A program made the position numbers. DNA of 12,989 nt, from the IMG/VR virus record IMGVR_UViG_2671180609_000015; one strand, 5' to 3'. This DNA is from a virus (taxonomy: Duplodnaviria; Heunggongvirae; Uroviricota; Caudoviricetes). Of this stretch, positions 9,001 to 12,000 are shown one piece after another; the stretch's first letter is position 1, and each line of letters starts with the position of its first letter.

Positions 9001-12000
9001 TGCTGACCCTGAAAAGGCACGGGCTTTATTACTGGAACAGCGCGACGGTGATGAAGCACTGGCGATAAAGCAACAGACAGATCCGGTTATTGAGTTTTGC
9101 CAGTTCCTGAATTTTCTGGAGGAAGCGCGCGGCCTGATGATGGGTGGCGGTGGCGATTCCGTGAAGTACACGACCAGAAACAGCCTTTACCGCGTCTATC
9201 TGGCGTTTATGGCATACGCAGGAAGAAGCAAGCCGCTAAACGTGGCTGATTTCAGCAAGGCCATGAAGCCAGCGGCGAAAGTTTACGGACATGAATATAT
9301 TACGCGAAAAGTTAAGGGAGTAACGCAGACCAACGCAATTACAACGGATGATTGTGACGCGTTTTTATAATTTTTTGTAAAAGCCCTCTACCCCATCTAC
9401 CTGAATGAAATAAACGCATATTATTCAACATGATAAGTGGGTAGAGGGATAGGTAGAAGGCTAATAAAACCCCTCTACCCCCTCTACCATGATTAAGGTC
9501 GTTTGTGAGGGGCGGGTAGAGGATGGGTAGAGGGCCACGAAAAGTCCTCTACCCATCTGAAAGCCGCGCCATTACTGACCTGAAAGATGATTAGGTAGAA
9601 GAGGTAGAGGAGGTGCACCACAACCTAAAACTTTTTAAACGAGGGGGGTAAAAATAAATGTGCATACATCAAAATCACTTAACAAACATGCCGACCGAAA
9701 ACATGAATCAGGGGCGACAAATGACCAAAATGCGCAGAGACAGAACACAGCAAAAATATAAAGCGTTAGACATGACAGAGCTTTCCCTAAAGGTGGCAAT
9801 CAAAGTTATAGACCGCCACACACGGGAAGGATACGCGAAGGAGAATCCCGAACTAATAAGCGCATTCATGACAACGGCAGCTGCAAACTTTGCCACGCTG
9901 ACAGAACGGGAGATTGCCGAAGCGGAACAGGTAACAACCATCAACGTTAAAACCGGAGAGGTGGAATCATGACAGCACAGATAGCGGCTTACGGGCGGCT
10001 GGTGGCTGACCCACAGTTAAAGACCACCAGCAAGGGCACACAAATGACGATGGCGAGTATGGCTGTCCCCCTGCCGTGCAGCCAGGCAGATGACGGAACG
10101 GCTACGATGTGGTTATCCGTCCTGGCGTTTGGCAGACAGGCCGACGCACTGGCAAAACACCGCAAAGGCGAGCTGGTGAGCGTGGCGGGTAACATGCAGG
10201 TAAGCCAGTGGACAGGCCAGAACGGCGAAACGCGGCAGGGCTGGCAGGTTATCGCAGACAGCGTAATCAGTGCGAGAACGGCGCGACCGGGCGGCAAAAA
10301 AGGCCAGCAGGGGCAGGCTACTGACGCACTGAACAGGGCAAAACAACAGGCGGGGAATGATGATCCGTACGGGGATAACATACCGTTTTAAGCAACGAGT
10401 GACAGAAGCCGGAGAAATCCGGCTTTTTTGTAGGTACTCCTGGTGGGGGTGGCCTGTCCACGGGGCGGAGGGGCGCGGAAAAAGGCGCATTTTTTGATTT
10501 TTATGGCACCATCACCACCACTATAAGCTATTGATATGTTGAGAAATAAAAATTTTTAGTGTCGAATCAGGTTGTTTTTTGTTCATCACCGGAACGTTCC
10601 CGAAAACATTTACAAAAAACAGGCGCAAAAAAAGCGCCCCCGATTGCTGTTACCGGAGGCGCTTTTACACGACAAAGGAGTTTTTATCGCCAGGATGACG
10701 AGTCTTAATACTGCTTCAATGGCAAAAATGCGTCAATAACTTTGCCTTTCTGAGAATAATCAGAAAAAACATAATCTGATTTTCAGGTAGAAAATGATTT
10801 ATCTATTACTTTTATCGATCAATAATGATGCCCGTTAATCAAAACGGAGGCGGATTTATGCCAGAGAACAACACCAGAAAGCCGGATAAAAGTGCCACGG
10901 TACACATAGACGCCGGAACTATGGAGAAGATCGAACGCTATCAGCAGTTCATCAAAGATAATCACCCGGGTATGCCAGTGCCCACGAAAGGACAAATCAC
11001 ACGCAGCGCGGTTGAATACTGGTACAGGGCAACGTTAGGAGCCTGGCTATGAAAACATGGTTTTCCATTAAGGCTATGGCAGATGTTGTACATGTGCGCA
11101 TTTATGACGAGATCGGCGGGTACGGTGTAAAGGCATCGGCACTTACTGACGAGATCAACGCGTGCGGTAATGTGTCTGAAATCCATCTTCGCATCCATTC
11201 ACCTGGTGGCGACATCTTTGAAGGGCTGGCTATCTATAACGCCCTGAAAAATCATCCGGCAAAGAAAATTGTACACATTGAAGGCATGGCGGCTTCTATG
11301 GCCTCGTTTATTGCCATGTGTGGCGATCACATCGTTATGCCTGAAAACGCGATGATGATGATACATGCCCCCCGTGGTGTTACTGCCGGAGTGTCGGGCG
11401 ACGTTCGCCGCTTTGCTGACCTGATGGACAAGCTGGGCGACACGATGGCGGAAACCTACGCCGGAAGAACGGGCAGGAGCAAACAGGAAATCACCGCCAT
11501 GATGGAGGCGGAAACCTGGATGGATGGCAATGAGTGTAAGGCTAACGGCTTCGCAGATGAGGTTATAGCCGCGATTACAGCAATGGCCCGAATTGAATCA
11601 AAACGAATCGGAGATTTTTCAAATATGCCGGAAAAAATTAAAAGCATGATCAGCCAGAAAACTACCAGTGGCGAACAGGAACGACTTAACGGCATCCGTG
11701 AATTGTTTGGCACGTTCAACGGAAGATATAACGACCTGGCTATAAGTTGTCTTGCTGATTCAGAATGTAGCGTTGAGAATGCACGCGAACGCCTTTTACT
11801 CGCTATGGGTAAAGAATCAACGCCAACAAACAAAACCACCCCCGCAAATCTTTACTACGCGTACACGGATAACGGCAACATAACCGGCGATGCAATGCGC
11901 CAGGGGCTTAATGCGCGTCTTGGTCACGAACGGGCCGAACGCGGTAATCCTTACGCCATGATGAGCCTTTTCGATATGGCACAGGCATCATTAACCCATC

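Follow-up and report, generated by a model that had tools for sequence, protein, structure and literature searches.

Among the described replication origins of phage satellites, the closest to the region considered here is that of EcCICFT073, one of the phage-inducible chromosomal islands (PICIs) of Escherichia coli. A plasmid carrying its pri gene and ori was maintained, while the delta-pri derivative gave no colonies and the delta-ori derivative significantly fewer (Fillol-Salom et al. 2018, ISME J, PMC6092414); the legend of Fig. 2a in that paper describes the origin as sets of short iterons on both sides of an AT-rich region. The CFT073 primase in trans and its 'primase origin' in cis also constitute a conditional replicon (Brodel et al., bioRxiv 10.1101/2022.09.30.509847): when the 'primase origin' replaced the plasmid origin, replication occurred only if the CFT073 primase gene alone was expressed in trans, so that neither the DUF4222 gene nor the open reading frame (ORF) downstream is required. 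We compare this and other systems with an array of short repeats lying past gene 7622-9370 in a 12,989-nt stretch of viral DNA (IMG/VR record IMGVR_UViG_2671180609_000015), the whole of which is called the window below. The array very probably serves an E. coli PICI as replication origin, with the Pri-Rep protein acting at its iterons; it is an origin of a known, experimentally characterised kind, found here with a variant repeat word.

In the pathogenicity islands of Staphylococcus aureus (SaPIs), as summarised in PMC9371898 after Ubeda et al. (2007, 2012), the Rep/ori arrangement comprises 6-12 iterons just downstream of rep, with an AT-rich centre and opposite orientations on each side. The window has 11-12 sites, with opposite orientations bordering 9402-9439, and resembles SaPIs in its predicted self-loading hexameric helicase initiator with a C-terminal winged helix and in the similarity of the helicase core (PriRep5, PDB 7OLA). 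The differences are the host (S. aureus belongs to another phylum), the iteron sequences, the place of the AT-rich element (past the first pair, near the left end of the array, instead of at the centre) and the fact that the window island has neither a separate pri gene nor a fused primase domain. Iteron plasmids of the pSC101, R6K, RK2 and F type also have initiator sites adjoining an AT-rich region, but their repeats are direct and 17-22 bp long and their Rep recruits host DnaB through DnaA and DnaC, whereas the window has 6-8 bp sites in both orientations, no DnaA box and an initiator that would itself be the helicase.

The last relevant system is P4. In its annotated record, the 300 bp directly past the alpha gene are the crr, made of two 120-bp direct repeats, in which type-1 repeats, 10 in number and of either orientation, are paired at a distance of 9 nt; ori is placed at 9086-9809, 4.5 kb from crr. 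The type-1 word read from that record is GGTGAACA (TGTTCACC), from which the window word GGTAGAGG differs; a text search for the P4 iteron word found nothing.

The repeat array and its homologue in EcCICFT073

A preliminary description of the window, made from the sequence alone, had reported about ten copies of an octamer, mostly in close pairs and in both orientations, within 230 bp past the stop codon of gene 7622-9370. This count was accurate. The octamer GGTAGAGG/CCTCTACC has eight exact matches in the window, all inside 9385-9610 (226 nt), and three one-mismatch copies lie in the same interval: GGTAGATG at 9394-9401 (minus strand) and GGTAGAAG at 9452-9459 and 9594-9601 (both plus strand). 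A twelfth, decayed copy, CATCTGAA at 9555-9562, stands next to the exact copy at 9546. In dinucleotide-preserving shuffles of the window, GGTAGAGG was found 0.14 times on average and none of 200 shuffles reached eight; chance or low complexity was accordingly rejected as the source of the array. Of the 13 GGTAGA hexamers in the window, 11 are within the array. The first iteron begins 15 nt past the last base of the stop codon, and the sites form six pairs of alternating orientation (- -, + +, - -, + +, - -, + +) with a spacing of 9-12 nt between partners. The gap that holds them (9371-9657) is non-coding and separates ORF 7622-9370 from ORF 9658-9972; no ORF of at least 50 codons was found on either strand of 9371-9634. 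The features of the gene and of the gap are given below, conservation being that seen in an alignment of 13 E. coli/Shigella gaps.

7622-9370, plus strand: predicted Pri-Rep-type helicase-initiator gene, 582 amino acids (aa), annotated 'DNA primase family protein' (Pfam, NCBIfam)
9077-9343, plus strand: region coding for the C-terminal domain (aa 486-574), putative iteron reader, from its match to PDB 1KA8
9385-9401, minus strand: iteron pair 1, GGTAGAGG at 9385-9392 and GGTAGATG at 9394-9401, left of the AT-rich spacer; TCTACC cores unchanged in the 13 loci
9402-9439, no strand: AT-rich spacer TGAATGAAATAAACGCATATTATTCAACATGATAAGTG, 38 nt, candidate DNA-unwinding element flanked by oppositely oriented iteron pairs
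9440-9459, plus strand: iteron pair 2, GGTAGAGG at 9440-9447 and GGTAGAAG at 9452-9459
9472-9488, minus strand: iteron pair 3, exact copies at 9472-9479 and 9481-9488, cores conserved
9515-9533, plus strand: iteron pair 4, exact copies at 9515-9522 and 9526-9533, cores conserved
9546-9562, minus strand: iteron pair 5, exact copy at 9546-9553, then the decayed CATCTGAA at 9555-9562
9557-9577, no strand: near-invariant non-iteron block CTGAAAGCCGCGCCATTACTG, the spacers around it being highly diverged
9594-9610, plus strand: iteron pair 6, GGTAGAAG at 9594-9601 and GGTAGAGG at 9603-9610
9627-9647, plus strand: block AAAACTTTTTAAACGAGGGGG, invariant in the 13 loci; right-edge A-tract/T-tract of the origin, followed by the ribosome-binding site of ORF 9658-9972

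The gap 9371-9657 gave no match to the consensus of either a DnaA box or an IHF site, and no second GGTAGA cluster was found in the window, in the complete related island of locus L002 or in EcCICFT073; both negatives fit a self-loading initiator acting at a single site. A search for RNA families over 9200-10800 returned only sub-threshold noise, none of it in the array. A candidate stem-loop between GGGGCGGG (9509) and GCCGCGCC (9563) was dropped, its complementarity being lost in CFT073.

Support for the assignment as an origin comes from EcCICFT073, which we located at 37931-48655 of locus L014 in the CFT073 genome. Its gene order is that of the window (DUF4222, pri-rep, a gap of about 288 nt, a small ORF and ssb), and its Pri-Rep is 90.2% identical to the window initiator over the full length. 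The GGTAGA hexamers of the CFT073 288-nt gap lie at offsets 15-, 24-, 72+, 92-, 103-, 112-, 145+, 156+, 176-, 224+ and 233+, and those of the window gap at 15-, 24-, 70+, 82+, 102-, 111-, 145+, 156+, 176-, 224+ and 233+ (the sign giving the orientation), i.e. 10 of the 11 share offset and orientation. The remaining iteron is reoriented between the two classes: it is on the plus strand at offset 82 in the window (9452-9459) and on the minus strand at 92 in CFT073 (L014 44088-44095). Also common to both are the AT-rich spacer behind the first iteron pair and the conserved blocks CTGAAAGCCGCGCCATTACTG and AAAACTTTTTAAACGAGGGGG, and the pairs 9385/9394 (minus) and 9440/9452 (plus) flank the AT-rich 38 nt in the manner of the published Fig. 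2a. They differ in iteron positions 7-8 (CA/TA in CFT073; GG/AG/TG in the window), in the C-terminal domain of the initiator (A542N and S545G), in the spacers (about 40-55% diverged) and in location, since EcCICFT073 occupies a chromosomal site of its own and the window island sits inside a prophage terminase gene.

The boundaries of the CFT073 origin were recovered by mapping the published cloning primers onto L014, one of which fits only with an indel. The pri-ori clone starts at L014 42198 and reaches the first codons of the following ORF, at about 44308; the delta-ori construct stops 4 nt past the pri stop codon. Because these ends bracket the gap, the CFT073 'ori' that was tested is the exact homologue of window 9371-9657. 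The window array is thus, on alignment, the positional and sequence homologue of the experimentally defined EcCICFT073 origin, and the proposal in the preliminary description that it is an iteron origin is supported both by this homology and by the 90% identity of the initiators.

The homologous gaps also indicate which part of the repeat matters. Within the array, invariant columns among the 13 loci number 46 of 66 in the GGTAGA cores and 35 of 157 elsewhere (Fisher p = 4e-11); when the core mask was shifted circularly, 46 invariant columns were reached in none of 244 shifts. Octamer positions 7-8 are invariant in 0 of 22 columns and are class-specific, mostly GG/AG/TG in the window class versus CA/TA in the CFT073 class. 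DNA identity between loci is 90-100% in the primase gene and drops to 44-76% in 90-nt windows of the gap; over the whole length, gap identity across the E. coli relatives is about 63-72%, with core positions and orientations kept. Since gap identity falls below that of the primase gene, the cores stand out as conserved islands in a fast-evolving or often exchanged segment. The GGTAGA cores are, by this measure, under purifying selection. The 8-bp motif first described must therefore be narrowed: the hexamer is the selected core, and the last two positions of the octamer are the most variable ones.

A homologue of window 9300-9700 was found in 565 of 5,426 complete E. coli genomes, O157:H7 included, and always on the chromosome. 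The main value of the present work is a secure annotation: it marks where the cis-acting replication site lies in a satellite family that about one in ten complete E. coli genomes carry.

The initiator and the repeat words of its relatives

The gene upstream of the array had been taken for a primase, and this part of the preliminary description was not confirmed. Pfam domains found in the 582-aa protein are D5_N (aa 151-280), the P-loop domain DUF5906 of superfamily 3 (SF3) helicases (aa 314-415) and a Pox_D5-type C-terminal domain; the protein also matches NCBIfam TIGR01613 (primase_Cterm). The helicase core (residues 193-430) matches PriRep5 (PDB 7OLA, E 4.6e-15), the remainder being without match in that structure, and the first 150 residues have no family match. 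Neither Zn-ribbon nor Toprim primase domains were detected with Pfam or by alignment with P4 alpha, unlike P4 alpha itself, for which the same search gave Zn_Ribbon_Prim (E 1.9e-18) and Toprim_3 (E 1.2e-12). Both domains are also present in the Morganella homologue, and the corresponding segments are absent from the window, CFT073 and Serratia proteins. The product of 7622-9370 is, from its domain content, a helicase joined to an origin-binding part, a helicase-initiator rather than a primase. The C-terminal domain (aa 486-574) matches residues 2-89 of PDB 1KA8 (E 1.1e-5). We take 1KA8 for the winged-helix domain by which P4 alpha binds its origin (the entry title says only 'putative P4-specific DNA primase').

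The N-terminal part of the initiator is mosaic: aa 51-150 (window 7772-8071) are 56-62% identical between loci, versus 94-100% over the remaining 430 residues. This segment was considered as the determinant of iteron specificity and rejected, its variation being independent of iteron class.

The preliminary description had suggested looking for the array beside primase homologues in other genomes, and it does recur there, with differing words. Viral contigs were scanned in two rounds, of 88 and then 51 more loci (roughly 130 homologous loci); in all but four of those scanned, a short repeat in 6-12 copies lies within 330 nt past the stop codon. The words found are GGTAGA, with initiators 69-99% identical to that of the window, GGTGTTCA, GGTATACA, GTGAACA and ATGAACA, and the orientation pattern is alike in the loci mapped site by site or read. 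A protein-based scan of genome contigs gave only three loci, two of them usefully divergent, and the related proteins among the 120 matches listed all had 98% identity or more to the window initiator. The Serratia and Morganella homologues (53% and 52% identical) have about 10 repeats past the stop, with the words GTGAACA and ATGAACA, respectively, in a pattern similar to that of the window: a pair, an AT-rich stretch, alternating groups and a closing ++ pair. Their AT-rich stretch is at the place equivalent to that of the window and CFT073 spacers, and a ++ pair with the 9-nt spacing at the position of pair 6 is present in both, as well as in the P4 crr units. An A4+NT4+ tract lies 240-260 nt past the stop in 56 of 69 distinct homologous regions, for a background of 0.31 per kb. 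This tract, AAAACTTTTT, is found again in distant homologues and, in P4, behind the ++ pair of every crr unit; where it borders the array on the right, it may be a second easily melted or bent element.

Simple relations emerge when the repeat word is considered together with the protein. Between word classes, no part of the protein diverges as much as the C-terminal domain (32-36% identity, versus 62-65% for the helicase core); in the Serratia protein, whose repeat is P4's own word GTGAACA, this domain matches 1KA8 at E 8.5e-23. Among proteins with cores 99-100% identical and either GGTGTTCA or GGTATACA as word, the only class-consistent differences are at residues 565 and 568 (window numbering): KTRGVVTN goes with GGTGTTCA in at least 16 loci and [KR][AN]RGMVTN with GGTATACA in at least 30, each in several backgrounds. 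Alignment to 1KA8 suggests that these two residues are in the beta-hairpin wing. Within the GGTAGA loci, iteron position 8 is A in 418 of 445 sites when residues 541-545 read V-N-[DE]-F-G (three domain backgrounds), and G in 294 of 355 sites when they read V-A-[DE]-F-S, the window state. The repeat word, as far as these comparisons go, changes together with the C-terminal domain, and the family form of the site, GGT-NNN-CA, makes the GG ending of the window a presumptively derived state.

Tentatively, and with some doubt, we propose that P4, PICIs and their relatives share a re-programmable initiator-iteron code. Sites of the form GGT-NNN-CA would be read by the winged helix, residues 565/568 setting word positions 4 and 6 and residues 542/545 position 8; the GG ending of the window and its A542/S545 would together represent a derived specificity, rendering its replicon orthogonal to that of the CFT073 type, and the PICI origin would be the evolutionary counterpart of the P4 crr, not of ori. 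What deserves attention in this work is the covariation of words and domains, and the homology with crr. The words GGTAGAGG, GGTAGACA, GGTGTTCA, GGTATACA and GGTGAACA form a compact natural data set for DNA reading by a winged helix. The CFT073 primase-origin pair is already in use as a conditional replicon for delivering non-replicating DNA payloads to gut bacteria; if natural variants differ, as this GG-ending class does, in the word and in a few binding-domain residues, they might supply orthogonal initiator-origin pairs and would also show which resident islands could unintentionally replicate such payloads.

The P4 crr and other roles considered for the array

The statement that P4 and PICIs alike place their origin right past the replication gene holds for PICIs, as it does for SaPIs, and fails for P4, in which the array past alpha is crr. 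The likeness of the two arrays is nevertheless extensive. P4 alpha has an SF3 helicase core (D5_N, DUF5906) and a 1KA8 C-terminal domain homologous to those of the window protein, and both systems have 8-bp sites starting with GGT, in both orientations, with 9-nt pairs, in an array that begins within 50 nt of the gene stop. A P4 crr unit and the right half of the window array are colinear: in both, an iteron on the minus strand comes before CTGAAA, followed by a ++ pair (9-nt spacing) and by the A/T tract, the CTGAAA motif of each P4 unit occupying the same place as block CTGAAAGCCGCGCCATTACTG. In position, the window array thus corresponds to the P4 crr. They differ in that alpha has the Zn-ribbon and Toprim domains missing from the window protein, and in that P4 needs two separated cis elements (ori and crr), while the window island has one cluster.

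This parallel is what makes a crr-like auxiliary role the most serious of the rival explanations: the array could be an enhancer or a loading platform, with synthesis starting elsewhere in the island, as expected if it worked like the annotated P4 region that it matches in both place and colinearity. The single cluster in the window, in the L002 island and in EcCICFT073 speaks against such a division of labour, and the CFT073 results do so more directly, because the pri gene and the gap alone maintain a plasmid and because a payload with only the 'primase origin' replicates when primase is given in trans (10.1101/2022.09.30.509847). We consider this explanation unlikely.

The position of the array, directly upstream of the next gene and close to a conserved block (9627-9647) that includes the ribosome-binding site of that gene, would also suit operators for a factor controlling the downstream operon (ORF 9658-9972, ssb, capsid), replication being started otherwise. 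Nevertheless, no sigma-70-like promoter was found in 9200-10700 (1.4 expected), the island genes are unidirectional with no terminator found past the primase gene, the word follows the C-terminal domain of the initiator and not any regulator gene, and the homologous CFT073 region is required in cis for replication. That the repeats are primarily operators is therefore very unlikely; the array may have a secondary regulatory role.

A third possibility is a packaging site (cos or pac) bound by the small terminase subunit, since such sites can hold short protein-binding boxes in repeated form and the island depends on a helper phage for its packaging. Yet the copies of the presumed cos region of the probable helper prophage sit elsewhere in the island (10426-10592 and 12963-12989), the octamer is missing from the packaging region of the helper itself, and the primase-plus-array module occurs in islands with different packaging genes. 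This explanation is hardly credible.

A number of points weigh against the reading of the array as an origin, or against parts of it. The crr of P4 is auxiliary and replication there starts at the distant ori, which means that position alone would not prove a start site. The function attributed to the window allele is carried over from its CFT073 homologue, and the two gaps are only about 63% identical, with CFT073 iterons ending in CA/TA and not GG. The AT-rich spacer is only moderately unstable: its 30-mers, with 77% A+T, come about 240th among 12,959 when these are ordered from the least stable duplex upwards, i.e. in roughly the least stable 2% of the window. Four initiator homologues on phage-sized IMG/VR contigs (L140-L143, 32-97 kb) are followed by a hairpin terminator and have no array within 330 nt, so that their origin, if they have one, must be located elsewhere. 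As to the code, the covariation of domain and word could reflect physical linkage, the domain being encoded within 300 nt of the array in one recombination block; the association of A542/S545 with GG probably stems from a single evolutionary event; and an AlphaFold2 model of aa 467-582 from the single sequence (mean predicted local distance difference test score 57.6) was too poor to place residues 542, 545, 565 and 568.

If the array is the origin, replication would most likely proceed as follows. After induction and excision, Pri-Rep would bind the 11-12 GGTAGA(GG) sites via its C-terminal winged-helix domain; the oppositely oriented pairs around 9402-9439 would position hexamers so that the duplex opens there, and Pri-Rep would then serve as its own SF3-type replicative helicase. 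Because the initiator has no primase domain, priming would come from host DnaG or from the helper phage. One may speculate that two hexamers each engage about six of the 11-12 sites. This scheme is that of the SaPI/PICI replicons, in which a hexameric helicase-initiator binds the iterons by its C-terminal winged helix without host initiators (PMC9371898).

The island, its host prophage and neighbouring genes

The island genes are all on the plus strand, in the order integrase (4280-5518), helix-turn-helix, Bro-N, Icd-like, DUF4222, 'primase', gap, small ORF, SSB and a ClpP-protease/major-capsid fusion. This content (an integrase, copies of the presumed helper cos, capsid-related genes, no tail or lysis genes) fits a PICI. 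Two genes follow the array closely:

9658-9972, plus strand: small conserved ORF, 104 aa, no family match, first gene past the origin
9969-10391, plus strand: single-strand DNA-binding protein gene of the replication module (Pfam SSB, E 3.7e-16)

The homologue of 9658-9972 is dispensable for replicon function, since the CFT073 constructs end at its first codons. The gene order with SSB is the same in 10 related islands.

The integrase is preceded by lysis genes, by nu1 and by a lambdoid terminase gene, gpA, reduced to its N-terminal half; the lysis region of this prophage contains a run of 98 N (masked or unresolved bases) at 2108-2205. The satellite is inserted in gpA (window 3111-4280, junction at about 4108-4121; loci L002 20960-20990 and L179 1900-1925). 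The uninterrupted 707-aa gpA of O157:H7 TW14359 reads ...CATTTTGGATGGAGGGGCCAGC... across the insertion site. The insertion core is TTGGATG[G/T]AGGG. Its one mismatch, at the left junction, produces a TAG, at which the truncated ORF stops (4118); in L002, gpA continues beyond the island with its C-terminal half. An occupied gpA junction was present in 82 of 556 matching genomes. A preprint showing satellites inside prophages is mentioned in PMC10085698.

The sequence upstream of the prophage nu1 (window 2442-2607), presumably the cos region, is repeated twice in the island, past ssb (10406-10592, 90% identical over 130 nt) and past the capsid gene (12943-12989), each copy being preceded by a hairpin and a T-run. 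The strain list of PMC6092414 includes EcCICFT073 delta-cos.1 and delta-cos.2 mutants, from which two cos copies seem usual for these islands. The ClpP-protease/major-capsid fusion of the island (11049-12938) has patches of 77-82% DNA identity to the prophage's own fusion (L002 23798-25777), which suggests that the island capsid protein is related to that of the probable helper.

A different island, with its own integrase, small terminase subunit and capsid gene, lies between cspD/yljB and clpS in E. coli O157:H7 7.1_Anguil (L001, 6394-14862). It is common with the window only over 7311-9952 (DUF4222, initiator, array and small ORF; 98%), from which it appears that the replication module moves as a cassette between islands. 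The shared block includes the downstream ORF, so that in this comparison of module boundaries the array is inseparable from that gene.

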